Shown here piece by piece: positions 5,412-63,929 of a DNA stretch of 64,000 nt. A program made the position numbers and the translations under genes. The notes beneath the pieces are model-generated. The model was given only the letters and a program-made list of their open reading frames with translations. It searched no databases and was not told the origin of the DNA. The stretch covers positions 23,031-87,030 of the forward strand of contig CASFBF010000001.1 of assembly GCA_949292985.1 (NCBI GenBank), read 5' to 3'. Every line of letters starts with the position of its first letter. Positions within the stretch are counted from its first letter, which is position 1. The stretch is from an uncultured Bacillota bacterium (lineage in GTDB: Bacteria > Bacillota > Clostridia > Christensenellales > UBA1242).

Positions 5412-6668
5412 ATGAGTAAACTTTTAATCCATGGTGGGAACAAACTTTTTGGTGAAATTTCAATTACCGCCGCTAAAAATTCTTATCTTCCAATTCTTGC
5501 TGCATGTGTGCTTTGCGAAGAACAAATTGTTTTACATAACTATCCAAATTACACAGACACACAAAGCATGTGTAAAATTTTATCGTCATTGGGGGCCAAC
5601 ATTGAAAATCATGATGGGAATTTGATTATAGACCCATCGTCCCTTTTTTCATGGGGTATAGAAAGTGAACTTGCATGTCAAGTGCGTTCTTCCATTTTTA
5701 TGCTTGGTGCACTACTAGGAAGATTTAAAAAGGCAAGAGTGGCTTATCCCGGCGGTTGTGAAATTGGGGCAAGGCCAATAGACATTCACCTTTCGGGCTT
5801 TAAAAAACTTGGAGTTAAAGTTGAAGAAAAACATGGCTATATTTATTGTAATGCTGATAAAATGCATTCAGGCACAATTTTACTGGAATTTCCAAGCGTA
5901 GGCGCAACCGAAAGTCTCATGATGGCAAGCGTGCTTTTAGACGGGGAAACCCGTATTCTTAACGCAGCAAAAGAACCGGAAATTGTGGATTTGCAGAATT
6001 TTTTAGTCAAAATGGGTGCAAAAGTTAGGGGCGCTGGTAGTGGCGAAATTGTAATTGATGGTGTTAAAAAATTGCATGGTTGCGAATTTACTCCTATAAA
6101 CGATAGAATAATTGCAGGGACATATATGATTGCAACCGCAATGTGTGGGGGAGATGTTTTGTTAAAGGGAATAAATCCTGAACATTTGCGGGCGCTTATT
6201 GATAAATTAGACAAAACTGCTTGCGTTGTTGAGGCGAAAAATGATAAAATCAGAGTGACAAGTGATGGAAAGCCTGTTGCTATTGGAAAGGTTGAGACAT
6301 CGGTCTATCCAGGTTTGCCCACCGATTTGCAGGCACAAATTCTTGCACTTTCTTGTATAAGTGACGGAAGCAGTATGATAATTGAAAATGTTTTTGAATC
6401 AAGATTTAAACATGTTCCCGAACTTATCAAAATGGGCGCAGATGTGCATGTTAAAGATAGGGTGGCGTTTGTGCGAGGAGTTCCGCATTTATATGGTGCA
6501 TCGGTTTGTGGCATGGAACTTAGGGGCACGGCTTCGCTTATTCTTGCAGGGTTGGTGGCGGAAGGTTATACAACTGTTTCTAACATCAGGCATGTTGACA
6601 GGGGATACAAAAACATTGAAAAAGAATTGGCATCACTTGGGGCAGATATAGAAAGGGTTGAGGATTGA
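5412..6668 (+). CDS. murA: UDP-N-acetylglucosamine 1-carboxyvinyltransferase MurA
   Basis: Full-length MurA-like sequence (LIHGGNKLFGEISI.AAKNSYLPILAA, GCEIGARPIDIHL). An AAGAGGA RBS precedes the ATG at 5412. Confidence 0.93.
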   Translation: MSKLLIHGGNKLFGEISITAAKNSYLPILAACVLCEEQIVLHNYPNYTDTQSMCKILSSLGANIENHDGNLIIDPSSLFSWGIESELACQVRSSIFMLGALLGRFKKARVAYPGGCEIGARPIDIHLSGFKKLGVKVEEKHGYIYCNADKMHSGTILLEFPSVGATESLMMASVLLDGETRILNAAKEPEIVDLQNFLVKMGAKVRGAGSGEIVIDGVKKLHGCEFTPINDRIIAGTYMIATAMCGGDVLLKGINPEHLRALIDKLDKTACVVEAKNDKIRVTSDGKPVAIGKVETSVYPGLPTDLQAQILALSCISDGSSMIIENVFESRFKHVPELIKMGADVHVKDRVAFVRGVPHLYGASVCGMELRGTASLILAGLVAEGYTTVSNIRHVDRGYKNIEKELASLGADIERVED

Positions 6669-7519: not shown

Positions 7520-7558
7520 ATACATATTCACAAAAATTTATAAATATAAAAAATTCTC

Positions 7559-7587
7559 TTGACAAAATGCGCTAAAAATATTAGAAT
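7559..7587 (+). promoter_or_regulatory. sigmaA-type promoter TTGACA-17-TAGAAT upstream of ftsA
   Basis: The hexamers and spacing were read directly from the sequence. Confidence 0.55.
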
Positions 7588-7606
7588 GGGAGGGTAAGGA
7601 TTAAAA

Positions 7607-8728
7607 ATGTTTAAAAAAGAAGTTGTTTGTTTAGAAATTGGTTCGTCAAAACTTAGGGTTATCGTTGCAAGCGAGGGTGTAAACAACACCCTTAAAATTA
7701 AAGAACTTGCTTCAAGAGATTATGACGGATATTTTCAGGGTGAGTTCGTTGACGAAAAGCATTTGGCGCCAAATCTTTTTGAACTTTTTAACAGCATTGA
7801 TTTTAAAAGCAAAAAATACTATAAAAAACTTTACATATCACTTCCATCTGAAATGTGTAAGGTTGTGAATTCGGTTGCTTCAATTGATATAGACGGTTTG
7901 GGCAAAGCAACCAAAAATGATTTAGATAATTTAAGTTTTCAAGCCATTGAAAAAGCGGGAGTTGATGATTATGAAGTTGTCAGCATTTCACCTATTAGTT
8001 ATTCTATTGATGACAGTCAAGTGGAAAATCCACTGGGTAAAAAGGGCAGATTGCTTTCTGGGGAATTTTCTATAATTTTATGTGAAAAAACTTTAATAGA
8101 AAAACTAAACAACATTTTTTCTGATCTTGGATTTATCAATGTTGAATATATAAGTGAAGTTTTGTGTGGCGCGTTGTTTATAGTTCCTGAGGAAGAAAGG
8201 AAAGAAGGCGCAATTTTGATTGATATTGGGCATCTTACAACAAGCGTAACATATGCAAAAAATGATGGAATAAACAGTTTAACATCTTTCTCGATAGGCG
8301 GAGGGCATATCACCAACGATTTAAGCGAAGCGTTTGACCTTGTTTATGATGATGCAGAAAGATTAAAACGAATGGTTGTTATTTCAGTGGAAGCAGACGC
8401 ACTTGATTATTATGACTTGCCGTCTGTTGAAGGAAGAATTCAACGCATTCCACAGGCAGACGCAAATGCTGTGGTTTCTTACAGGTTGGAAGCAATCGCA
8501 TCTGCAATCAATCAGTGTTTGATAATGCAGGGAATAAATCTTTCAAGTTATGTTCCAATTTATTTGATTGGCGGGGGAGCAAGCAAAATTAAAGGCGGAA
8601 AAGATTTCCTATCAAAATGTCTTGGAAGGAACATAACTTTGGGCAGAGCACCTTTGCCAGGAAAGGACAAGCCAGAAGAAGCAATTATTTATGCAATTGC
8701 CGATTATGTGCTTAAAAATTGCGAATAA
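7607..8728 (+). CDS. ftsA: cell division protein FtsA
   Basis: Actin-like ATPase sequence (CLEIGSSKLRV, IDIGHLTTSV, LIGGGASKIKG). It lies directly upstream of ftsZ. Confidence 0.93.
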   Translation: MFKKEVVCLEIGSSKLRVIVASEGVNNTLKIKELASRDYDGYFQGEFVDEKHLAPNLFELFNSIDFKSKKYYKKLYISLPSEMCKVVNSVASIDIDGLGKATKNDLDNLSFQAIEKAGVDDYEVVSISPISYSIDDSQVENPLGKKGRLLSGEFSIILCEKTLIEKLNNIFSDLGFINVEYISEVLCGALFIVPEEERKEGAILIDIGHLTTSVTYAKNDGINSLTSFSIGGGHITNDLSEAFDLVYDDAERLKRMVVISVEADALDYYDLPSVEGRIQRIPQADANAVVSYRLEAIASAINQCLIMQGINLSSYVPIYLIGGGASKIKGGKDFLSKCLGRNITLGRAPLPGKDKPEEAIIYAIADYVLKNCE

Positions 8729-8794: not shown

Positions 8795-9979
8795 ATGGAA
8801 AACAATACTTCATTTGGCAACAACACTTCATTTGCTAAAATTAAGGTAGTCGGCGTTGGCGGGGGCGGAAACAACGCTGTAAATAGAATGATTGAGGCTG
8901 GCGTAGATTCTGCTGAGTTTGTTGCAGTTAACACTGACAAACAGGCTTTGGTGGTTAGTAAGGCACCAGTAAGACTTCAAATTGGTGAAAGATTAACTGG
9001 TGGTCTTGGCGCTGGTGGTATACCTGAAATTGGTCAAAAATCTGCTGAGGAATCAAAGGCGTCTATTACAGAAATGCTTGAAGGTTCTCATCTTGTTTTC
9101 ATCACCGCAGGTATGGGTGGCGGAACAGGAACAGGTGCTGCACCTGTTGTTGCTCAAATTGCAAAAGAGATGGGCATTCTGACAATTGCCGTAGTTACAA
9201 AACCTTTCGCTTTTGAAAGCAGAATTAGGGCAGAGAACGCAGAAAAAGGTATCAACGAATTAAAGAAATATGTTGACACAATGGTTATCATTCCAAATGA
9301 AAGATTGTTCCAAATCGTTCCAAAGAAAACACCTATTTTAGAGGCGTTTAGATACGCAGACGATGTTCTTCGTCAAGGTATTCAAGGCATTTCAGATTTA
9401 ATTGTTAAACCTGGTCTTATCAACCTTGATTTTGCCGATGTTAAAACCATTATGCAAAATAAAGGACTTGCACATATGGGCATTGGTCATGGTAAGGGTG
9501 AAAATAAAGCGCTTGACGCTGTTAAACAAGCAGTTGCCAGCCCACTTATTGAAACAACAATTGAAGGCGCAAAAGGCTTACTGTTGAATGTTAAAGGTGG
9601 AATGGATCTTACTCAGGAAGATGTAAGCGAAGTTGCAACTCTTGTTCAAGAAGTTATCGACCCAAGTTGCCAAGTTATTTTTGGAAATAGCATTGACCCT
9701 GATATGCACGATGAACTTGAAGTAACAATCATTGCAACAGGCTTCCCAACAACTGAGGAAAAAGCAAAAACAACAGAAGCAGAAGAGGCAAGGGACTTTA
9801 ATCCAGATTTTGCTGAAAAAGAAGGATTGAAAGGATTGGCAGGTTTGAAAAATCAGCCAAGAGAAGAAGTTAGGCCAGAAGTTTCAATCAAGAGAGATGA
9901 AAATGCAGGCTCATCAAGGGTTGAAGTTGACACTTCTATTCCTGCTTGGCTTAGACAACTTAGAAGCAAGAAAAAATAA
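8795..9979 (+). CDS. ftsZ: cell division GTPase FtsZ
   Basis: [14 protein letters not shown] and the tubulin signature [11 protein letters not shown]. An AAGGAG RBS precedes the ATG at 8795; the upstream extension in the track has no RBS. Confidence 0.97.
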
Positions 9980-10926: not shown

Positions 10927-11652
10927 ATGAAAAAAGTTTTATTTTATATTAAACAGTTTTTATGGAAACTGTTTTCAAAGCATGATTTACTTAATGCAGA
11001 AGGCGTTGTTTGTTACATTTGTGGCAATGAGGCTTTGCCTCTTCCGCTTGACCCAGAAGAAGAGCGAATGTTGGTTGAACAAGCCGAAAATGGAAGTGAT
11101 TTTGCCAGAGAAAAACTTGTTGAGCATAATTTAAGGCTTGTTGTTTACATTGCCAAAAAGTTTGAAAACACGGGGATTGATTTTGAGGATCTTATTTCTA
11201 TTGGCTCGGTGGGTTTGATTAAAGCGGTTAAAACATTTAGAGGAGATAAAAACATAAAACTTGCAACATATGCATCTCGTTGCATTGAAAATGAACTTTT
11301 GATGCAACTTAGAAAACTTTCTAAACTTAAAGGAGAGGTTTCCCTAGATAAACCTCTTTGTGATGATGGCGAAGGCAATGAACTTGTTCTTGCAGACATT
11401 ATGGCAACAGAAAGCGAAGAGGTTAGCGCAGGGTTAGACCATTCCGCAGAAAAAGATGCGATTTGGCAAATTTTAAATCGATTAGAGCGCCGTGAGCAAG
11501 AAATTATGATTTTGCGTTTTGGGCTTGAAGGCAAGGACGAACTAACACAAAAAGAAGTGGCTGATAAACTTGGAATTAGTCAAAGTTATATTTCAAGAAT
11601 AGAAAAAAAGATTTTGGTGAAAATGAAAAAAGAACTTTCCAAGATTTTATAA
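10927..11652 (+). CDS. sigE: sporulation sigma factor SigE (pro-sigma-E)
   Basis: Pro-sequence followed by YICGNEALPLPLDPEEE, then sigma-70 regions 2-4. An AAAAGGAGAGG RBS is present. Confidence 0.95.
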   Translation: MKKVLFYIKQFLWKLFSKHDLLNAEGVVCYICGNEALPLPLDPEEERMLVEQAENGSDFAREKLVEHNLRLVVYIAKKFENTGIDFEDLISIGSVGLIKAVKTFRGDKNIKLATYASRCIENELLMQLRKLSKLKGEVSLDKPLCDDGEGNELVLADIMATESEEVSAGLDHSAEKDAIWQILNRLERREQEIMILRFGLEGKDELTQKEVADKLGISQSYISRIEKKILVKMKKELSKIL

Positions 11653-11711
11653 TGAAAAATTACTCAAATTGTAGGAAATTTCTACGAGTTTTGTCAAATA
11701 TTGCGCTTTGT

Positions 11712-11741
11712 GCATAATTGCGCCTCCAATAGGGGAAAGTA
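11712..11741 (+). promoter_or_regulatory. forespore (sigma-F/sigma-G type) promoter upstream of sigG
   Basis: GCATA-15 nt-GGGGAAAGTA is a near match to the published sigma-F pattern GYATA-N15-GGnnAnAHTR. sigG is known to be sigma-F/G dependent in Bacillus. Confidence 0.4.
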
Positions 11742-11761
11742 TTATCCTATGGAGGCTTTTT

Positions 11762-12538
11762 ATGTCTAATAAAGTTATCATAGCGGGTGTAAACACCTCT
11801 CAACTGCCTAAACTTTCAAATGACGATATCATGGCACTTATGAAAAAAGTTAAGCAGGGTGATGATTTTGCCAGAGATGCTTTTGTTGTGGCAAATTTAA
11901 GGCTTGTGCTCAGCGTTGTTCAACGATTTGGTGGAAGAAGTGATAAAGCAGACGACATGTTTCAAGTTGGTTGTGTTGGCTTAATGAAAGCAATTGATAA
12001 TTTTGATGAAAGCCTTAATGTTAGATTTTCAACCTATGCTGTACCAATGATAATTGGTGAGATTAGAAGATTTTTAAGAGATAATAATTCAGTGCGTGTT
12101 TCTCGCTCGCTTAGGGATATCGCATATAAGTCGTTGCAAGCAAAAGAGCAACTTTCAAAAAATTCTGTAAACGAGCCCACAGTGGAAGATATTGCAAAAT
12201 ATTTGAATGTTCCTGCAAAAACCATAAATTTTGCTTTGGACGCAATAAGTGAAACCGTTTCGCTTTCCGAACCTATCTACAACGACGGAAGCGACACCAT
12301 TGAATTAAAAGACCAAATTTCAGACCTTAAAGATAGTGAAGATAGTTTATATGAAAAGATAGCAATAAAAGAAGCGATAAAAAAACTTTCGCCAAGGGAA
12401 AGGGAGATATTGCTGTTAAGATATTATGTTGGAAAAACGCAAATGGAAGTAAGCCAAGAGGTTGGCATTAGCCAAGCCCAAGTTTCTCGTCTTGAAAAGA
12501 ATGCTTTAAAAGAAATTAAAAATAAAATTTCAGAATAA
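11762..12538 (+). CDS. sigG: sporulation sigma factor SigG
   Basis: Sigma-70 family sequence (DAFVVANLRLVLSVVQRF, STYAVPMIIGEIRRFLRD). A GGAGG RBS is present. The gene follows sigE as in spore formers. Confidence 0.93.
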   Translation: MSNKVIIAGVNTSQLPKLSNDDIMALMKKVKQGDDFARDAFVVANLRLVLSVVQRFGGRSDKADDMFQVGCVGLMKAIDNFDESLNVRFSTYAVPMIIGEIRRFLRDNNSVRVSRSLRDIAYKSLQAKEQLSKNSVNEPTVEDIAKYLNVPAKTINFALDAISETVSLSEPIYNDGSDTIELKDQISDLKDSEDSLYEKIAIKEAIKKLSPREREILLLRYYVGKTQMEVSQEVGISQAQVSRLEKNALKEIKNKISE

Positions 12539-12590
12539 AAATTTGACGAATTTTGTCATGACAAGGCTTTTACAATCATATATGTAAAGC

Positions 12591-12872
12591 GTGGAAAGTT
12601 CATTTTTAGAATTAAGGTGTAAAGAAGTTGTTAATGTTGTAGACGGTCGTAGATTGGGGCACATTATTGATGTGGTTTTCAATCTGTCTACCGCTTGTGT
12701 AACGGGGGTTGTAGTTCCAGGCGAAAAAAGTTTTTGGAATGTTTTCAAAAGTGGCGCAGAATTTTTTATTCCTTTTAATCAAATTGTAAAAATAGGGGAA
12801 GACACCATTCTTGTTCAAATTTACGGTGGCCAGCCAAACCAAAACCCATATATTTTAAGTGATAAAAAATAA
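12591..12872 (+). CDS. ylmC: YlmC/YmxH-family sporulation protein (PRC-barrel)
   Basis: CKEVVNVVDGRRLGHIIDVVFN is typical of YlmC/YmxH. The start is GTG and the product is small (93 aa). Confidence 0.85.
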   Translation: MESSFLELRCKEVVNVVDGRRLGHIIDVVFNLSTACVTGVVVPGEKSFWNVFKSGAEFFIPFNQIVKIGEDTILVQIYGGQPNQNPYILSDKK

Positions 12873-12880
12873 TAAAAAAA

Positions 12881-12906
12881 CAGCACAAAAATCTGTGCTG
12901 TTTTTT
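12881..12906. terminator. bidirectional intrinsic terminator
   Basis: AAAAAAA-CAGCACA-aaaatc-TGTGCTG-TTTTTT. Confidence 0.8.
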
Positions 12907-13169
12907 AATTTATAAATTTTGTTAGCATTCTAATTCTCTAAACATATTTTTACTTCTTTTGAATTATAAACTTATTGTCATTTTATAAACATACTAGTAA
13001 TCACTATATTTATTTTAAAATCAAATTATCCTCTTGTTATTTCAAAATACTTTTTCATGGGGAACCACCTCATAACACTTATTATAACATTTAAAATATT
13101 TAACCAACACCCATTGTTCTTCTTCTCTTATATTATAATACTCGATTTTGTGTTAAAATTCCTTTATTT

Positions 13170-13613
13170 TTACAATTCTTCTAAAAGTTTTTTGAAACTG
13201 TCGATGTCTTTAAATTGGCGATAAACCGATGCAAAACGCACGTATGCAACTTCGTCAAGTTTTTTAAGTGCTTCCATAACCATTTGACCAATGGTGGAGG
13301 ATGGCACTTCTTGTGAGAAGTTGTTTTGCAAGGTTTTTTCAATGTCAAGCGCAACTTCTTCAATTTGGCTTATGCTTACTGGACGTTTTTCACATGCCTT
13401 TATCATTCCATTTTTTATTTTGTTTATATCAAATGCCTGTCTGCTTCCATCAGTTTTGATAACCAAGATAGGTGTCATTTCCACTGTTTCGTATGTAGTA
13501 AAACGCTTTCCACAGCCAAGGCACTCTCTTCTGCGTCTGATTGCGTTTGCCTCGTCGGTGCTTCTAGAATCTAAAACTTTGCTTTCTTCACAACCACAAT
13601 ATATGCACTTCAT
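13170..13613 (-). CDS. nrdR: transcriptional repressor NrdR
   Basis: N-terminal zinc ribbon [18 protein letters not shown]...[17 protein letters not shown] followed by an ATP-cone. Confidence 0.96.
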
Positions 13614-13714
13614 GATTTACTCCTTGAACTTATTTTAGCATATAAGTTTTTAAAAAGCAAATGTTTATGGCAAAAAATTGTTTTAAAGCGCCTGTCAAAA
13701 CAATACATTATTTT

Positions 13715-13939
13715 ATGCTTAATTTATGTGATGCAAAAAAGAATAAAACTTATGTGATTGTGGATTATCAAAACCTTTCCACAAAAATTTTGCGACGACT
13801 TTGTGATTTGGGACTTACCAGGGGACAAACTGTGGTTGTGGCAAGTCGTTCGCTTCTTAAAAAAGCCTTGCTTGTGGAAGTTAGGGGCTATCTTCTTTCG
13901 CTTAAAGCCGACATTGCCAAGGGGGTGTGCATAAAATGA
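13715..13939 (+). CDS. feoA: ferrous iron transport protein FeoA
   Basis: SH3-like FeoA pattern (LCDLGLTRGQTVVVA ... VEVRGYLLSLKADIAKGV). Its stop overlaps the feoB start (ATGA). The start codon is uncertain; 13661, 13667 and 13715 are all possible. Confidence 0.8.
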   Translation: MLNLCDAKKNKTYVIVDYQNLSTKILRRLCDLGLTRGQTVVVASRSLLKKALLVEVRGYLLSLKADIAKGVCIK

Positions 13940-16038
13940 ATAAAACAAAAAAAGTGTTGCAATGCCCAACCGAACATATAACAGAAGTGTTGCTTGTAGG
14001 AAATCCCAACACTGGTAAAACAACGCTTTTTAACAAACTTACTTCATCAAATGAGCATGTTGGCAACTGGCATGGTGTAACCGTTGACAAAAAGGCAAAA
14101 GTGTTTGATTGTTTGGGTCAAAAAAGATTGCTTGTGGATTTACCCGGCATTTATTCTCTTTCAGCGCTGAGTTTTGAAGAACAAGTTGCAATTGATTATA
14201 TTAGGTCGCACCCTAAAACAAAAATCATCAATATTTGCGATTTGAATAACATTCAACGCAATCTGGCGCTAACTTTGGGGCTTTTAGAGTTTGGTGCAGA
14301 TGTTGTTTTGGCGGTGAACTGTATGGATAAACGCCCGCTTAATAGGCTGGATTATAATGCGTTAGAAAAAGAATTAGGTGTGCCTGTTGTTGAGATAAAT
14401 GCAGACAAGGGGTGGGGATTTGATAAATTAAAGCAAGCAGTTTTAAATCCTTTTTCCTTGCCACCATCACCAAAATATTTAAAAAAATTAAATTTGAACA
14501 ATGTTAAAATCAACTTTTCAAAAAAAATAGACGACTTTACTGCCATAAAAATTATGGAAGGTGATGAGCCGATTTTAAAAGAACTTGGCATTAAAGAAAA
14601 CAAGTTTTTGGATATTCAAAAAATTGCAGAGGCTAGATTTGAATATATTTCTTCATTACAAAAGCGGTTTTTTGTTTGCAGTGGGAAAGTATACGGCAAA
14701 AGCATAATTGATAAAGTTGTTTTGAATAGATTTTTAGCATTCCCGATATTTTTGCTGGTTTTGGCTGTTATTTTTTATCTAACTTTTTTCTCTATTGGCG
14801 CATGGCTTTCTGACGGACTTAACAAACTTTTAGACATCAGTGTGGGAACTTGGACAAGACAACTTTGCCTTGCATGGTTTGGTGAAAGTTCGTGGCTCAC
14901 GCACTTGTTTTGTGATGCTTTAATTGGCGGAGTTGGAACTGTGCTTTCATTTCTGCCACAAGTAGGGCTGTTATTCTTGTTCCTATCAATATTAGAAGAC
15001 AGTGGCTATCTTTCACGAGTTGCCTTTGCTAGTGAAGATATATTTGGAAAAATTGGGCTTTCAGGAAAAAGCGTTTACACTTTGCTAATGGGGTTTGGTT
15101 GCTCTACCACCGCAGTGCTTACAGCAAGAAATATGGAAGATAAAAATTCGAAAATTAAAACCGCACTGCTTACACCTTATATGAGTTGCTCGGCAAAATT
15201 TCCTATCTATGTTGTAATTGGCGCAGCGTTTTTTGGCGCTAGCAATGTGTTTGTAATTATGGGACTATACCTTTTAGGGCTGGTGGTTTCAATTATTTTA
15301 AGTTTGATTTTTGAAAAAACAGTGCTTAAAAGCAAAGCGCAATCTTTTATTTTAGAGTTTCCGCCTTACAGATTTGGTGGGGCTAAAAGAATTTTTAAAG
15401 TGCTTTGGGAAAACATTAAACAATTTTTAATTCGTGTTGGCTCGCTTTTGATTTCCATGAATGTTATTGTGTGGTTGCTTGCAAACTTTTCTTTTGATTT
15501 TTCCTTTGTGTCTGAATCGGGCAAAATGAGCATGCTTGAAGGTTTTGGCAAAGTTCTCGCACCTATTTTTGTTCCGCTTGGATTTGGCAGTTGGGGAGTT
15601 GCCTCCGCCTTGGTTGCAGGTATTGTTGCAAAAGAGGTGATAATTTCTTCAATCGCTATGTTCAACGGCGTTGCAAATGAATCGCAAATTGGCCAAACTT
15701 TGCATGACAGTAGCAGTATGGTTTATTTTGCTTCTCCCGCTTCTGTTATGTCGTTTTTAGTTTTTTCGTTATTGTATTTGCCGTGCATTTCAACAATGGT
15801 GGTGCTTTCAAAAGAAATAGGCAAAAAATGGACCTTTATAGGCATAATTATTCAATTTGCTGTGGGATATTTAACAGCACTGTTCACTTTTAACCTTTTC
15901 AGAGCAATTGAAGCGTTTGGCGTTTGGCCTGTGCTGGGAGTTGTTGTTGCCTTTGTGGTTATTATTCTAAGCATTTTTAAGATTGTAGGGCACATTAAAA
16001 AGCCAAGGTCTTGCAAAGGTTGCAAAGGTTGCAACTAA
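13936..16038 (+). CDS. feoB: ferrous iron transporter FeoB
   Basis: G-domain motifs GNPNTGKTTLFN and DLPG, then a polytopic permease. The tail is Cys-rich (CKGCKGC). Confidence 0.95.
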   Translation: MNKTKKVLQCPTEHITEVLLVGNPNTGKTTLFNKLTSSNEHVGNWHGVTVDKKAKVFDCLGQKRLLVDLPGIYSLSALSFEEQVAIDYIRSHPKTKIINICDLNNIQRNLALTLGLLEFGADVVLAVNCMDKRPLNRLDYNALEKELGVPVVEINADKGWGFDKLKQAVLNPFSLPPSPKYLKKLNLNNVKINFSKKIDDFTAIKIMEGDEPILKELGIKENKFLDIQKIAEARFEYISSLQKRFFVCSGKVYGKSIIDKVVLNRFLAFPIFLLVLAVIFYLTFFSIGAWLSDGLNKLLDISVGTWTRQLCLAWFGESSWLTHLFCDALIGGVGTVLSFLPQVGLLFLFLSILEDSGYLSRVAFASEDIFGKIGLSGKSVYTLLMGFGCSTTAVLTARNMEDKNSKIKTALLTPYMSCSAKFPIYVVIGAAFFGASNVFVIMGLYLLGLVVSIILSLIFEKTVLKSKAQSFILEFPPYRFGGAKRIFKVLWENIKQFLIRVGSLLISMNVIVWLLANFSFDFSFVSESGKMSMLEGFGKVLAPIFVPLGFGSWGVASALVAGIVAKEVIISSIAMFNGVANESQIGQTLHDSSSMVYFASPASVMSFLVFSLLYLPCISTMVVLSKEIGKKWTFIGIIIQFAVGYLTALFTFNLFRAIEAFGVWPVLGVVVAFVVIILSIFKIVGHIKKPRSCKGCKGCN

Positions 16039-19734: not shown

Positions 19735-19763
19735 AAAAAACCGAACTTAATGTTCGGTTTTTT
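19735..19763. terminator. bidirectional intrinsic terminator
   Basis: AAAAAA-CCGAAC-ttaat-GTTCGG-TTTTTT. Confidence 0.8.
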
Positions 19764-20443
19764 CATCTACTTAACAATTTATTTAGTTCGTAATGTGATG
19801 AATCTAAATCATAAAACTTTTGTTTAAATTGTGGGTTGTTATCCATTTCTTCTTGTGAAGCAACAAGTTTTGCTTTTATGTGTAGTGCCAAATGCTTTTG
19901 AGAAGCGCTAAGCAATGATGCTCGGCAATATACATCTTCTTCTTGTTTCACCCAGTTTAATTTTTTAGCCATACTTTCTGACACCGAAACTTTAACTGCA
20001 CTTTCATGATAAATTCTTCCATAATTTACAAGCATTGTGCTTATGCTATGCCCAGATGGCAGGGATATTGGCATTAAGTTTGCTTTTACTTTTCCAGTTA
20101 TAAGGCAAATGTCGCTAAATTCTGGCAAAAATTTATTTAGGTAAAGTTTTTGGTAAACAACATAACTTGAATATTTATCACCATTTAATCTCTGTGTTTT
20201 GTAAGAGCCATAAACTATTACATTGTCGCCTATTTTAGTTTCATTCATTATTTCGTCTTTATGTGTTTCGCTGACTATGACTGGAATTAAATTAGGCGAG
20301 CGTTTGCTTCCAGAAACATTTACAAAAAACAAATAATAGTTTGTGTTATGTACAACCGAAGTGTAATATACGGTTGGATAGTCAACCAATGTGCCAGTTA
20401 TTCTAACTCTGTTTGTTGGTTTATCAAATGCGAAGTTATCCAT
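19763..20443 (-). CDS. hypothetical protein, possibly a tandem OB-fold (SSB-like) architecture
   Basis: Clean 226-aa frame. Both halves start with an OB-like strand pattern (NRVRITGTLVDYP and SDICLITGKVKANL). No family was recognised. Confidence 0.55.
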   Translation of the reverse strand: MDNFAFDKPTNRVRITGTLVDYPTVYYTSVVHNTNYYLFFVNVSGSKRSPNLIPVIVSETHKDEIMNETKIGDNVIVYGSYKTQRLNGDKYSSYVVYQKLYLNKFLPEFSDICLITGKVKANLMPISLPSGHSISTMLVNYGRIYHESAVKVSVSESMAKKLNWVKQEEDVYCRASLLSASQKHLALHIKAKLVASQEEMDNNPQFKQKFYDLDSSHYELNKLLSR

Positions 20444-20550: not shown

Positions 20551-20652
20551 ATGAAAAAAGAAGAAGAAAAACAATTTAAAATCATTTGCATCAAAGCGCC
20601 TAAATGGATGCGGCCTTTTTTAAAGCCTTTTGTTAAAAAAGGCGAAAAATAG
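20551..20652 (+). CDS. candidate SpoVM-like sporulation micro-protein (33 aa)
   Basis: MKKEEEKQFKIICIKAPKWMRPFLKPFVKKGEK. The core IK-x-PK-[FW]-[LM] resembles B. subtilis SpoVM (YTIKLPKFLGG). It is convergent with rpmB next to yloU/yloV, as spoVM is in Bacillus. There is no SD; a CATATAAA -10-like box lies 7 nt upstream. Confidence 0.4.
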   Translation: MKKEEEKQFKIICIKAPKWMRPFLKPFVKKGEK

Positions 20653-20749
20653 GCGAGCGCTTACATGTGCCTGCTTTGCAGGCAACATGTTGCACCTGCG
20701 CTTTTGTGCGCAGGTGCTTGTCCCGTCTGGGACGGGACAAGCGCTCGCC
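20652..20749. repeat. GC-rich nested-palindrome element A (closing stem plus three hairpins, four-way junction)
   Basis: Closing stem GGCGAGCGC/GCGCTCGCC. Inner hairpins span 20663-20690, 20692-20717 and 20718-20740. The element starts at the TAG stop codon and is about 60 percent G+C by hand count. Confidence 0.7.
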
Positions 20750-20793
20750 GTTGTTATATCTCTTTGGCAAAAGGCGTATAATTACATATAAAC

Positions 20794-58912: not shown

Positions 58913-59360
58913 ACTGTTAAACCAAAAGGTTTTTGATGAGGCACTTAAACTTACAGACAATGAAGTTGAAGGTGTTACGGTTGGGATTACCTTTGTTTCA
59001 AAGGCAAAAATTAAAAAATTGAATTTGACAAGACGCGGTATAAATAAAGTTACCGATGTTCTTTCTTTTCCTATGTTTGAAACTAAGAAAAAGGGAACTC
59101 TTAAAAATTTTATAAATGAAGCAGACCCACTTACAAAAGAACTTGAAATAGGGGATATAGTAATTTGTTTGCCAGTAGCAAAAAAACAGGCAAAACAGTA
59201 TAAACATTCCTTAAATAGAGAAATTAACTTTTTGGCATTGCATGGTTTTTTGCATTTATTGGGCTACGACCACTTAAATGCTCGTCAAGAAAAAGAGATG
59301 TATTCATTGGCTGAAAAAGTATTAACAAGCCTTTCTATTACAAGAGGTGAACATGTATAA
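58887..59360 (+). CDS. ybeY: rRNA maturation RNase YbeY
   Basis: Zinc motif HGFLHLLGYDH. A GAAGGAG RBS precedes the ATG at 58887. Confidence 0.93.
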   Translation: MKIYTNKPKLLNQKVFDEALKLTDNEVEGVTVGITFVSKAKIKKLNLTRRGINKVTDVLSFPMFETKKKGTLKNFINEADPLTKELEIGDIVICLPVAKKQAKQYKHSLNREINFLALHGFLHLLGYDHLNARQEKEMYSLAEKVLTSLSITRGEHV

Positions 59361-60198
59361 ATTTGGATATGTCGCTATTTTGGGTAAGCCAAACGCAGGG
59401 AAAAGCACTTTAATTAACAGATTGGTTGGCATGAGACTCGCAATTATTTCGGATAAGCCACAAACAACTCGTGACAATATTTTGGCAATTGTTAATGGCA
59501 AAAATTATCAACTTGTGCTGATTGACACCCCTGGAATACATAAAGCAACTTCTCATCTTGATAAATTCATGATGAAAAATGTGCGCACAGCCAAAGCAGG
59601 CGCAGATGTTGTGGTGTATTTGCTGGATAGTTCTCTTCAACCTGATCCGCAAGAATTAGAGCATATCGCTAAAATGAAAAAAGATGGGCTTAATGTGATT
59701 GTGGCAGGCTCAAAAAGCGATAAGAAAAAATTTGAATTTGACTGTGATTTATATTTTTCAGCAGTTACAGGAGAAAATGTTTCAAATTTGATTGATAAAA
59801 TACTTGAATTTCTTCCATCTTCAAAAAAGAAAAACTTTTTATATGGGCAAGATGAAGTAACTGATAAACCTGTAAAGTTTATTGTGGGGGAGTATGTGCG
59901 TGAAGGGGTGTTGAGGATACTTAAAAAAGAAGTGCCTCACGGCGTTGCAGTTGTTACAACCGCTTTTGAAGAAAAGGCAAACATAGTTAATATAGAAACA
60001 GAAATTGTTTGTGAAAAACAATCTCATAAAGGAATTATTATTGGCAAAGGTGGGGAAACCTTAAAAAAGATAGGAATGTATGCAAGAGAACAATGCGAAG
60101 AACTTTTAGGCAAAAAAGTGATGTTGAAAATTTTTGTTAAAGTTGAAGAAGGCTGGAAAGATAAACCTAACAAACTTACCGATTTGGGTTATAACTAG
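59353..60198 (+). CDS. era: GTPase Era
   Basis: GKPNAGKSTLIN and DTPG motifs plus a C-terminal KH domain (IIGKGGETLKKIG). Confidence 0.95.
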   Translation: MYKFGYVAILGKPNAGKSTLINRLVGMRLAIISDKPQTTRDNILAIVNGKNYQLVLIDTPGIHKATSHLDKFMMKNVRTAKAGADVVVYLLDSSLQPDPQELEHIAKMKKDGLNVIVAGSKSDKKKFEFDCDLYFSAVTGENVSNLIDKILEFLPSSKKKNFLYGQDEVTDKPVKFIVGEYVREGVLRILKKEVPHGVAVVTTAFEEKANIVNIETEIVCEKQSHKGIIIGKGGETLKKIGMYAREQCEELLGKKVMLKIFVKVEEGWKDKPNKLTDLGYN

Positions 60199-60282
60199 GC
60201 GAGCAAGGCGCGTGCGAAGCACGCATGCCCCGTTAGGGGCAGAAAATTTTTGCGAGATAGCGCAAAAATTTGCCTTGCTCGC
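60199..60282. repeat. GC-rich nested-palindrome element B (closing stem plus three hairpins), followed by a T-run
   Basis: Closing stem GCGAGCAAGGC/GCCTTGCTCGC (11 bp). Hairpins are GCGTGC-gaa-GCACGC, TGCCCC-gtta-GGGGCA and AAATTTTTGCG-agatag-CGCAAAAATTT. It starts right after the era TAG, and T9 follows at 60284-60292. Confidence 0.7.
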
Positions 60283-60353
60283 ATTTTTTTTTGTGACAAT
60301 TCACCGATTTTTGAAATATAGTGTAACAAGACTACTACGCGAAAGAGGAAACA

Positions 60354-61115
60354 ATGAGTGACATTGCCAAAGTAATTTTAGGGATAAGTTTCATTTTTAT
60401 TATGACATCGTTAGGTGCTCTAACGGCGTTTTTATTTAAAGATAAAGTTAGCATTAAGTTTAATAAATTGATTGTTGGCTTTTCATCAGGAATAATGATT
60501 GCTGCTTCAATTTGGTCGCTACTTTTACCTGCAATTGATGGGGCAGAACATTATGGCAATCTTAAATTTTTGCCAGCAGTGTTAGGTTTTTTTGTTGGTG
60601 GGCTATTCTTGGCTTTGATAGATTTTTGTTGTAAAAAGTTAAACCATGGTGGAATGAAAAAATCAAATAAATTATTTTTAGCAATGACTTTACACAACAT
60701 TCCAGAGGGGCTTGCGGTTGGTGTTGCATTTGGCAGTGCTTGGGCGTCGGGTGATGCATCAGCAATGGCGTTGGCATTAAGTTTGGCAATAGGAATGGGA
60801 ATACAAAATTTTCCTGAAGGTATGGCAATTGCTTTGCCTATGAAGCAGGCAACGGGCAGTAAATTTAAAGGTTGTTTAATGGGCATTCTTAGTGGAATTG
60901 TAGAGCCAATAGGCGCAATAGTTGGATTTTTCTTGGCATCGAGTATAACTGTTATCATGCCTTGGGCGCTTTCGTTTGCAGCGGGAGCAATGATATATGT
61001 TGTTGTAAGTGAATTGTTTCCTGAAAGCCAGGTGGGAGAAGGGGCAAGTTTGGGGACATGGGGAACGATGCTTGGATTTATGTTAATGATGGCGTTAGAT
61101 GTGGGGCTTGGATAA
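60354..61115 (+). CDS. zupT: ZIP-family divalent metal transporter (ZupT-like)
   Basis: HNIPEGLAVG and QNFPEGMA motifs in a polytopic protein. Confidence 0.88.
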   Translation: MSDIAKVILGISFIFIMTSLGALTAFLFKDKVSIKFNKLIVGFSSGIMIAASIWSLLLPAIDGAEHYGNLKFLPAVLGFFVGGLFLALIDFCCKKLNHGGMKKSNKLFLAMTLHNIPEGLAVGVAFGSAWASGDASAMALALSLAIGMGIQNFPEGMAIALPMKQATGSKFKGCLMGILSGIVEPIGAIVGFFLASSITVIMPWALSFAAGAMIYVVVSELFPESQVGEGASLGTWGTMLGFMLMMALDVGLG

Positions 61116-61832: not shown

Positions 61833-61906
61833 AGGGGTGTAGTTTAGTGGTAAAACAGTGGTCTCCAAAACCATTGTCGAGGGTTCAATTCCTTCCACCC
61901 CTGCCA
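61833..61906 (+). tRNA. trnW: tRNA-Trp (anticodon CCA), CCA end encoded
   Basis: Acceptor stem AGGGGTG/CACCCCT, a D-arm with GTGG, anticodon loop CTCCAAA, a T-arm GGTTCAATTCC, discriminator G and CCA. Confidence 0.93.
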
Positions 61907-62017
61907 ATTAGAAAAAACACAATATATGGAGCATATATAAATTGAAAACCACTATATCTTGTATATAAAAAAATTTAGGAACAATTTAGGAACAGAAAAT
62001 AAAAAACGACCTTAAAA

Positions 62018-63181
62018 CTAGGTCGATTTTTTTAATCTTGATTGTAATTTATTTATTAAATCTTCTTCTTCATTAGGCATAAGGTGCGCGTAAGTATTTA
62101 AAGTTTGCTCTATACTGCTGTGACCTAGTCTTTTGGCGACTGCAACAATTGACGCACCTTGACTTATCAATAGGCTTGCATGGCTATGTCTTAAATCATG
62201 AACCCTAATTATTTTTACATTAGCTTCTTTGGCAGCGTTAGTAAGATATCTGCAGATGCTGGTTTCTGGCAATGGTGCAGTTCCTCCAAATACGAATTGT
62301 CCTAATGTATTGTTTTGTTTTTGAACTTCATGTAGTTTTTGAATCATATTAGATAGATTGTCGCTTATTTTAATTTTTCGCACAGAACTTGCGTTTTTAG
62401 GGGTGGTAACCATCCATGAAGCGCCAGTCACCTTTTTTGATATAGATTTGTTTATATTTAGTGTCTTATTTTTTAAATCCCAATCACTCCAATATGTCGC
62501 TAGCATTTCGCCTTTTCTTGCGCCAGTTAAATAAAGGGCGGTGTAGAAAACCTGATATTCAAAATCATGAACATTTTTTATTACACTATCAAATTCTTCT
62601 GGCGTCCAGATAAGCATTTCATGCGTTGGCTCCAGATTTCTAAAGCCATCGACTTTACGTAATTGATTTGGAATATCATAATATTTTTCTGCATAACGCA
62701 ACAATCCAGATAAACATGTTCTTAAATGACATTTGTAATTATAGCTATAATTTGTTAAAGAGTTCTGCCAATCCAAAATTTGTTTTGGAGTTATTTTTGC
62801 AACGTCGCTTTTTCCAAAATAATCAAGTAACTTTTTGGATTTAGAAACGAAATCATAATGTGTGCTTGGTTTTGTCCGTGTTTTTAAATAAGTTTCGTAT
62901 TCGTTGTATAATTCTTTAAAAGTTAAGTTCTTTTTTATTTTTTTATTTGTCGAAGGATTGTTAATATTAAATTCAAACACGGCATTTTGTGCTTCTTTTT
63001 TTGTTTGAAATCCAGATAATCTTTTTTGTATTTCAATTCCGTTTGCATTCACAAATCTAAAACGCGCCGACCAGCTTATATTAAAAGAATTGCCACCGCA
63101 ATGTTTGCAGTGACCTGCTTCGTCTAGACTTACATTCTTTTTACAGTTTTTGCAGTAATAAACTTTTTCAAAGCTTGCCAT
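62018..63181 (-). CDS. int: tyrosine-type site-specific integrase with an N-terminal zinc ribbon
   Basis: CKNCKK...CKHCGG N-terminus. Catalytic region GARKGE, HDLRHSHASLL and LGHSSIEQTLNTYAHL (R-H-R-Y). Confidence 0.93.
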   Translation of the reverse strand: MASFEKVYYCKNCKKNVSLDEAGHCKHCGGNSFNISWSARFRFVNANGIEIQKRLSGFQTKKEAQNAVFEFNINNPSTNKKIKKNLTFKELYNEYETYLKTRTKPSTHYDFVSKSKKLLDYFGKSDVAKITPKQILDWQNSLTNYSYNYKCHLRTCLSGLLRYAEKYYDIPNQLRKVDGFRNLEPTHEMLIWTPEEFDSVIKNVHDFEYQVFYTALYLTGARKGEMLATYWSDWDLKNKTLNINKSISKKVTGASWMVTTPKNASSVRKIKISDNLSNMIQKLHEVQKQNNTLGQFVFGGTAPLPETSICRYLTNAAKEANVKIIRVHDLRHSHASLLISQGASIVAVAKRLGHSSIEQTLNTYAHLMPNEEEDLINKLQSRLKKST

Positions 63182-63807
63182 TAGTGCACGCTCCTTCGCA
63201 CTTCTTTTACAATGCCCAAAATAGTGATAGGCAGTTCTATAACTTCTTTATTCGTGAAAAATAGTGGTTCATAATCTGGGTTAAGCGGCATCAGGGTGAT
63301 GCCGTTTTCTTTTTTTAATACTTTTTTGAAAGTGCATTCAGTGTGGTTAATCGAAACTGCGCAATAGTCGCCGTTCTCACAATCATCTTGTTGTTTAAGA
63401 ATTAAAATGTCACCATCTTCAAACTTTGGCATCATAGATTGTCCTCGAACTTTTAAACAAAAATAGGTGTTATCGCCTTTAAGCCAGTCAGCGGGAATTT
63501 CCTCTTCGTCTTCGATAAAAGAGTCATCCACCATCTCAATAGGGATGCCTGCGGGTATTTCGCCGAATACAGGAATTTTGACAACAGTTCTGTTAAGCTG
63601 CATTCCGCGGATGTTTCTATCGCTTCTGCCAGTTAGATAGTCTATTGAAACATCAAAAAAAGAAGCAATGGATTTAAGTGTTTCTAAATCTGGTTCACTG
63701 CCGCCAGTTTCATACATTGTGATTGTAGATCTAGCCAAACCTAACTTTTCGGCTAGCTTTTCTTGCGTTATTTTTCTGCTTTTTCTAAGTTCTCTTAATC
63801 TTAACAT
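63181..63807 (-). CDS. phage CI/LexA-like repressor (XRE HTH plus S24 peptidase domain)
   Basis: LRELRKSRKITQEKLAEKLGLARSTITMYETG (HTH) and VRGQSMMPKFEDGDILILK (S24 Ser site). A GGAG RBS precedes the ATG at 63807. Confidence 0.9.
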   Translation of the reverse strand: MLRLRELRKSRKITQEKLAEKLGLARSTITMYETGGSEPDLETLKSIASFFDVSIDYLTGRSDRNIRGMQLNRTVVKIPVFGEIPAGIPIEMVDDSFIEDEEEIPADWLKGDNTYFCLKVRGQSMMPKFEDGDILILKQQDDCENGDYCAVSINHTECTFKKVLKKENGITLMPLNPDYEPLFFTNKEVIELPITILGIVKEVRRSVH

Positions 63808-63826
63808 GTTAACTCCTGTAATTATT

Positions 63827-63929
63827 ATGTCAAATATATTGACATTTTTCAAGATTTTTTAAAAAAAATATGTCAAATTACTTGACAATATCGATTTTAT
63901 ATATTACAATATGTCAAGAAACTTGACAA
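63827..63929. promoter_or_regulatory. lysogeny-switch region with repeated operators ATGTCAA-N5-TTGACA(T) and divergent promoters
   Basis: O1 is 63827-63845 (perfect 7-bp arms), O2 is 63870-63888 and O3 is 63911-63929. The rightward promoter is TTGACA (63882)-17-TACAAT. The leftward promoter is TTGAAA-17-CATAAT and flanks O1. Confidence 0.7.

Follow-up and report, generated by a model that had tools for sequence, protein, structure and literature searches.

What is the GC-rich structure that follows the era gene of this uncultured Clostridia bacterium, and what does it do there? The question arises from 64 kb of DNA (the window, as we call the whole stretch analysed), in which GC content is 32-38% and era is the final gene of a yabP-yqfD-ybeY-era cluster. 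At the base after the era TAG begins a dense palindromic element, element B, which runs into a T-tract; a second such element, element A, lies elsewhere in the window (Table 1). A first-pass annotation had read element B as an elaborate terminator or 3'-end stabiliser, and the pair as members of a dispersed family.

Table 1. Positions of the features of the window that are discussed in the text, counted from its first base.
Feature	Position	Strand	Remarks
SpoVM-like ORF, 33 aa, MKKEEEKQFKIICIKAPKWMRPFLKPFVKKGEK	20551-20652	+	read from sequence; TAG stop shares the first base of element A
Element A	20652-20749	+	closing stem GGCGAGCGCT/AGCGCTCGCC and three hairpins; architecture as in element B
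era (GTPase Era)	59353-60198	+	281-aa product from ATG at 59353; stop TAG at 60196-60198
75-aa ORF across element B	60134-60361		no Pfam family
Element B	60199-60282	+	four GC-rich helices: a closing stem round three perfect hairpins
Closing stem of B, 5' arm GCGAGCAAGGC	60199-60209	+	perfect pairing with 60272-60282
Hairpin 1 of B, GCGTGC-gaa-GCACGC	60210-60224	+	sequence and RNAfold
Hairpin 2 of B, TGCCCC-gtta-GGGGCA	60226-60241	+	sequence and RNAfold
Hairpin 3 of B, AAATTTTTGCG-agatag-CGCAAAAATTT	60244-60271	+	sequence and RNAfold
Closing stem of B, 3' arm GCCTTGCTCGC	60272-60282	+	sequence and RNAfold
A at 60283, T9 at 60284-60292	60283-60292	+	U-tract of the presumed intrinsic terminator
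Promoter-like site GTGACA-18-TATAGT	60293-60322	+	consensus scan, 10/12 matches; serves the downstream ZIP transporter gene
ZIP transporter gene	60354-61115	+	Zip Pfam match; downstream of element B

The Era product has a record on 10 public contigs and matches the Pfam families MMR_HSR1 and KH_2. Exact protein look-ups returned matches for Era read from its ATG and for L28, and none for Era read from a GTG or for SpoIVA. Era orthologues were found in 45 species, and the Era and SpoIVA proteins of the window have matches solely in MAGs of uncultured gut Clostridia. Directly past the T-run of element B starts a promoter-like site for the ZIP gene, and the ATATAGTG block of this region is kept in orthologous loci. 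The 75-aa ORF drawn across the element, which had been set aside as an artefact, is indeed one, as it has no Pfam match and received no gene call in any of eight independent assemblies. A stop-codon readthrough or pyrrolysine-type signal at the era TAG was dropped, since the Era C-terminus, LGYN, ends alike in orthologues that use TAA. Further downstream, the region past the tRNA-Trp gene (window 61833-63852; L046-L050, where L numbers designate loci and contigs compared with the window) differs among strains: the window and L047 have a phage-type integrase and an HTH/S24 repressor there, and L046, L048 and L049 have IstB-like and DnaB_2-domain genes instead, which suggests that an element has integrated at the tRNA.

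The coordinates and pairing first described for element B were borne out exactly, from the start right after the era TAG to the 11-bp stem, the three hairpins and the T9. Eight of the 11 closing pairs are G-C, the 62 nt of the interior are laid out in the three hairpins, and the linkers of the junction are 0, 1, 2 and 0 nt long. All pairs (34/34) are Watson-Crick. With RNAfold, the MFE and the centroid structures are the same four-way junction, with an energy of about -54 to -56 kcal/mol (-55.6 with flanks; z = -7.35) that none of 200 dinucleotide shuffles matches; the structure is far beyond chance. When folded as DNA, the two strands give -37.8 and -36.7 kcal/mol (z = -10.9 and -8.5), and they are equal in folding.

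Several known types of element were considered and rejected. ARAGORN and the Rfam tRNA model, run over the window, matched only the tRNA-Trp at 61833-61906, and the stem and loop sizes of element B are unlike those of a tRNA, which argues against a tRNA or tmRNA. Rfam 15 at the gathering threshold gave no family for element B in the window and only tRNAs in 13 junction loci; a permissive scan of the B region (E < 10) returned two noise matches, scoring 15.9 and 12.4 bits where the thresholds are 57 and 95. By inspection, element B has none of the RYYYAAC/GTTRRRY core sites of an integron attC, and its stems are perfect, with no bulged bases. A MITE was rejected on the lack of flanking direct repeats and of dispersed copies and on the reuse of host sequence in closing stems; a REP/BIME, on the presence of A and B alone in 64 kb, the branched, perfect palindromes of 84-155 nt and the lack of a GTAG tag.

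The evidence on function comes mostly from the comparison of era 3' ends. Within the species, element B is present on 8/8 contigs read and is nearly invariant: variation is limited to one loop base (GTTA vs GTTC in hairpin 2), the length of the T-run (T7-T9) and one compensated stem change (hairpin 3 of strain L049, AATTTTTTGCG/CGCAAAAAATT). An orthologous junction follows era in L002 (84% Era identity), where the stem of hairpin 3 is identical to that of B, hairpin 2 is longer, the closing stem has three compensatory double changes and hairpin 1 has one compensatory change, from U-A to C-G. RNAalifold on the orthologues of B recovers 34 pairs, with five compensatory double changes (five pairs changed in L002) and no one-sided change. 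L006 (74% Era identity) has a bigger three-hairpin junction after TAG, closed by the same GCGAGCAAG as in B and without a T-run, which speaks against termination as a general role; L037 (48%) also has a three-hairpin junction after era, unrelated in appearance to B. In the closest species, L001 (90%), the hairpin is simple and AT-rich (GGATATAA-ttaaaag-TTATATCC); it extends over the era stop and has a T7 behind it. L003-L005 have simple GC hairpins and T-runs. In the window, L001 and L002, the T-run lies at the same aligned position (T7 in the latter two). The Era identity matrix groups the species as ((window, L001), L002), so the junction was most likely ancestral to all three and swapped out in L001.

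At the era end, the T-run stays constant and the hairpin ahead of it can be exchanged, and it is chiefly on this ground that we read element B as an elaborated intrinsic terminator or 3'-end protector at the transcript boundary of the yabP-yqfD-ybeY-era operon, a role that we consider probable on balance. The role first proposed for the ybeY-era transcript gains from the comparison, since the T-run is kept in the two nearest species and the junction (window, L002) and the simple hairpins (L001, L003-L005) appear interchangeable. Like the Rho-independent terminators of Firmicutes, element B pairs a GC-rich stem with a U-rich tract that starts at most 2 nt further on (A+T9), after the stop of the last gene of an operon, and it lies at the end of the transcription unit, in the same place as the simple terminators of L001 and L003-L005. 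It is unlike them in its three-hairpin 'loop' of 62 nt, where a simple hairpin has a loop of about 3-8 nt, and in its energy of about -54 kcal/mol. To our knowledge, a structured 'loop' of this length is beyond the range of characterised intrinsic terminators. We propose that the three inner hairpins would fold during RNA synthesis and that the GC-rich closing stem would zip next, straight ahead of the A+U9 tract. An intrinsic-termination signal of the canonical kind would result, with a perfect four-way junction, already folded and with scarcely any single-stranded nucleotides, as its 'loop'. Such a 3' end would be highly resistant to 3'-exonucleases, and the element would also insulate the ZIP-transporter promoter.

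The count of two such elements in the window also holds, as a GC-island scan and a relaxed structural scan returned A and B alone. Element A has an energy of -75.4 kcal/mol (z = -10.2) and orthologues in L054, L055, L056, L100, L134, L058 and L063; these are too divergent for MAFFT or RNAalifold and were compared through per-element folds and pairwise. The SpoVM-like ORF that precedes it sits between spoIVA and rpmB, with rpmB convergent on it, and its IIC[IF]KAPKW motif is kept in 69 species of uncultured Clostridia. This ORF is below the size of ordinary ORF lists. On the rpmB strand, element A and its orthologues have a short T-run (CTATTTTTCG, or TTTTT directly). There they would back up the rpmB terminator and guard spoVM against antisense read-through.

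The surroundings of element A have features of their own. Between the element and the rpmB terminator, the window (20768-20790), L054 and L056 have a conserved block, AAAGGCGTATAAT, with a perfect -10 hexamer and without an obvious -35. Adjoining spoVM, on the minus strand (window 19763-20443), is a fast-evolving protein of 226 aa with a weak SSB/OB-fold match (21.4 bits vs a cut-off of 26 bits), which is only 41% identical in L054, against 95% for SpoIVA. L063 has four tandem paralogues of this gene (11505-14717), two of which are flanked by duplicate copies of the junction and of the rpmB terminator. A tie between the junction and the SSB-like gene was rejected, because presence of the gene does not track the junction.

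How common are such junctions among relatives? Loci were obtained from era, from spoIVA, from the back-translated SpoVM motif (69 species) and from a second Era query, and all DNA gathered was scanned for a perfect closing stem round a dense fold. The scan was then tightened to closing stems of 8 bp or more and branches of 6 bp or more, with up to 5 unpaired bases allowed in the junction and up to 3 outside it. In 1.40 Mb of relatives it found 24 clean three-branch elements, of -31 to -92 kcal/mol, and four weak two-branch folds, of -9 to -18 kcal/mol; the same scan of 0.46 Mb of unrelated genomes with GC < 0.45 gave no junction. Overall, there are about 30 junctions in related species, with three inner hairpins in every strong one; the members of the class are 84-155 nt long, have energies of -31 to -131 kcal/mol and linkers of 0-2 nt. 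They are a small, lineage-restricted structural class at gene ends of related uncultured gut Clostridia, apparently undescribed so far.

The junctions recur at a few sites. One follows spoVM in nine species (window, L054, L055, L056, L058, L063, where it is duplicated, L100, L106 and L134), and one separates spoVM from feoB or spoIVA in eight (L094, L105, L135, L115, L146, L125, L127 and L152). Downstream of era, junctions are also found in L146, L150 and L151, about 240 nt away and after a TTGACA/TATAAT promoter. This strong promoter, some 55 nt ahead of the junction (L146 at about 330-400 on the minus strand; L150 and L151 at about 5990-6075), would place it in a transcribed leader or a small RNA, with a lipoprotein-like gene next. 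Other junctions are found after a tRNA gene (L154, L155 and L164), after yloV (L087), between dnaK and dnaJ (L101) and at one further site (L141). Only 9 of the 30 have a T-run on either strand, so canonical termination cannot be the general function of the class, whose general role we infer.

Some of these sites show further peculiarities. In L105 (about 5980-6000, minus strand) and L135 (about 5895-5915, plus strand), the last FeoB-like codons (..CRGCKRGRK*) enter the closing stem, which is thus partly coding. Downstream of the tRNA gene, L154 (9087-9300) and L155 (8705-8878) have a 64-nt tandem array whose units comprise the tRNA 3' end AGCTCCAG and its inverted complement, with the three-hairpin interior in the first unit; L155 has a second, 5'-truncated copy of the interior at about 8905-8975. 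In L087, a 19-nt tandem repeat (GACCGCACCAACCAAGCCC; 7526-7624) directly follows the post-yloV junction, up to the end of the locus as fetched. A 160-nt inverted repeat in L083 (5074-5233), with a GCTTCCCCTCAAGGGGAAGC hairpin near either end, differs in kind from the three-hairpin junctions.

The way in which the junctions change bears on whether they are selected at all. Over 22 elements, 901 pairs are Watson-Crick (about 98%) and 18 are G.U, and there are 12 single mismatches. Counted on the gene strand, there are 9 internal G.U pairs to 5 A.C mismatches, and on the opposite one 7 to 5. The strands show no asymmetry, and this symmetry in pairing and folding leaves no sign that the era-strand RNA is the selected molecule. 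Several changes look like single events at the level of DNA that keep palindromy. The two junction copies of L063 have a hairpin loop that is exactly inverted (TTGAAAA vs TTTTCAA), and in the conspecific strain L265, hairpin 2 of element A has a cluster of four changes at its tip, with flanks identical at 90/91 and 147/150 positions. Between L154 and L155, the flanks are about 95% identical and the closing stem is identical, and all three inner hairpins are different. Closing arms are also built from local sequence, namely the tRNA 3' end (L154, L155 and L164) or the final FeoB codons (L105).

These patterns, together with the patchy presence and absence of junctions in close species, are consistent with DNA-level palindrome clusters without a dedicated function, in which B would only incidentally stand in place of a terminator hairpin. 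They would arise by mutation at hairpins, through template switching (which turns quasi-palindromes into perfect ones), processing of the tips and inversion between the arms, and be tolerated at gene ends. We consider this unlikely in view of the orthologous pair L115/L146, in which 40/44 pairs are identical and two compensated, whereas 10/13 unpaired bases are different and the downstream flank matches no better than at random. Helices so much more conserved than loops and flanks indicate purifying selection on the helices, with the loops free, when conversion-driven drift would give about neutral change of pairs. Moreover, the number of branches is always three, and we know of no mutational process that favours three branches. 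Junctions are kept at the same sites (after spoVM, after era) in species whose Era is only about 50-75% identical, and a U-tract that looks functional is kept in element B and in its L002 orthologue. Loops and hairpin tips thus appear to be remodelled fast, with the helices kept, and we infer that selection for the architecture acts along with hairpin-directed mutational remodelling, the two being not fully separable.

If the architecture is selected, the perfect four-way junction itself might be the recognised object and the T-run of B secondary, a reading that we find doubtful, slightly more so than the previous one. Recognition could be by RNase III acting on coaxially stacked helices of about 22 bp or by a junction-binding protein, or the junction could be an orientation-independent barrier to transcription. 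In its favour are the three hairpins and 0-2-nt linkers of all of the about 30 cases, the unconserved sequence of loops and junction, and the U-tract missing in most members. It would also suit the sites between co-directional genes (feoB-spoVM, spoIVA-spoVM, dnaK-dnaJ and era-zip) and the one in a leader downstream of a TTGACA/TATAAT promoter (L146, L150 and L151), and the strand symmetry fits a bidirectional barrier at the convergent spoVM and rpmB. However, no candidate factor was found, there is no sequence signature that a protein might read, and the element is lost from many species with nothing visible in its place.

More broadly, we tentatively suggest that perfect four-way junctions may be a distinct selected class, recognised by an RNase, a junction-binding protein or RNA polymerase, and may serve as orientation-independent boundaries round spoVM, era and other genes. 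Their sequences would be renewed by rewriting at the level of DNA, of the tips and sometimes of whole interiors, with the architecture kept. The fixed number of three hairpins, the equivalence of the two strands and the rapid turnover that keeps palindromy leave room for this broader reading.

The suggestion of a dispersed family stood in part. The architecture recurs, in about 30 junctions that all have three hairpins, but the sequence is not shared: BLAST of 29 junctions against all fetched DNA (about 2 Mb) found orthologues only and no likeness between different sites, which indicates a structural class and not a dispersed repeat or mobile family. Elements A and B share only 9 nt (TAGGCGAGC...GCTCGC is common to both), and the closing stems of orthologues vary widely (GGCAAGCGC, CAGGCAAAGC, ACCCGCCCC, ACCCGCCCCTCGC, GCGGCTATCGGAAAC and others), so that the GCGAGC/GCTCGC closure, once taken as a family mark, is no signature. 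The abutment on TAG fared no better, as orthologous junctions come 0-13 nt after a TAA or TGA, and in one case about 240 nt off. TAG as an insertion target or as part of the element was thereby rejected; TAG accounts for 7 of the 51 stops in the window, where, the genome being compact, the ordinary terminators (6-11-bp stems and T-runs) touch or overlap stop codons too. Nor did comparison of era 3' regions reveal B as an insertion, since the copies are orthologous, there is no target-site duplication and the L001 site is no clean excision. A scan of JGI metagenomes for the closing stem of B round a 45-75-nt interior gave 35 matches, none a three-hairpin junction; they are unrelated long palindromes or chance matches in organisms of 44-73% GC, and the collection scanned was evidently without this lineage. 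Five environmental metagenome contigs (L230, L232, L241, L248 and L263) have a separate family of long perfect palindromes starting tcattGCGAGCAAGGCGAAGCAATC, from GC-rich organisms, which came up only through the 11-nt closing sequence that they have in common with B.

RAYT-associated REPs, including BIMEs, are GC-rich extragenic palindromes found after genes, with a tetranucleotide that ends in TAG beside them, and have been proposed to be terminators or mRNA stabilisers (PMC3733652). They form high-copy families of single, imperfect palindromes of 20-40 nt, unreported in Firmicutes in that survey, and the junctions are unlike them in being single-site, perfect and branched, with no sequence common between sites. 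It is very improbable, and already disfavoured, that A and B are transposase-mobilised repeats of the REP/BIME or MITE type inserted after TAG stops: their common TAGGCGAGC...GCTCGC, their GC-rich palindromes in a genome of 35% GC, the REP-like position after genes with a tag beside the palindrome and the absence of the element from L001 would fit, but sites share no sequence likeness over about 2 Mb, target-site duplications are absent at every boundary read, copies are orthologous and not scattered, with differing closing stems, the tag is CTAG or ATAG here and missing in orthologues after TAA or TGA, REPs are high-copy and of another build, the 'empty' site of L001 is no clean excision and the metagenome scan returned only unrelated palindromes of GC-rich organisms. 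The positions of the junctions, orthologous and not scattered, thus argue against any insertion-type repeat family.

Known 3' structures offer partial parallels to element B as an elaborated terminator or 3'-end protector. The 3' stem-loop of the Bacillus thuringiensis cry1A mRNA, in the work of Wong & Chang from 1986, is reportedly a positive retroregulator that lengthens the life of the mRNA. Like it, the junctions are 3' structures in a sporulating Firmicute, and several flank sporulation genes (spoVM, spoIVA and yqfD-era). The retroregulator is however a single hairpin with experimental support, and the junctions are predicted from sequence. In Clostridium cellulolyticum, upstream cistrons, dnaK included, have their 3' ends stabilised by stable stem-loops in the intergenic regions, most of which lack a U-run; these stem-loops have orthologues across species and became more compact over evolution (PMC4423207). 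These are single stem-loops of -6.6 to -31.8 kcal/mol, unlike the predicted junctions, which are branched and reach from -31 to -131 kcal/mol. Clusters of hairpins only a few bases apart, just past stop codons, have been proposed to terminate jointly, with a poly-U tail not always present (Gupta & Pal 2021, PMC8355165). They are adjacent hairpins, mostly two, whose frequency drops with their number, whereas here three hairpins always lie inside a long closing stem. For the terminator hairpins of Bacillus subtilis, a mean of -16 kcal/mol is quoted (de Hoon et al. 2005, cited in PMC11736430); the junctions are several-fold stabler than this quoted mean, and most members of the class differ from Rho-independent terminators in having no U-tract.

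If the reading of element B as an elaborated terminator or protector is true, intrinsic terminators and 3'-end protectors can be perfect four-way junctions and not only simple hairpins. Standard terminator finders miss such junctions, as our consensus scan left the closing stem of B unflagged. Because about 30 natural examples are unrelated in sequence, they offer a clean system to study what a junction adds to termination, RNA stability and insulation. In the fast turnover of hairpin tips, which preserves palindromes, mutagenesis by template switching or hairpin processing would show its traces in wild populations. Finally, the recurrent junction beside spoVM, a tiny sporulation gene that ordinary ORF calling misses, aids the annotation of poorly known gut Clostridia.
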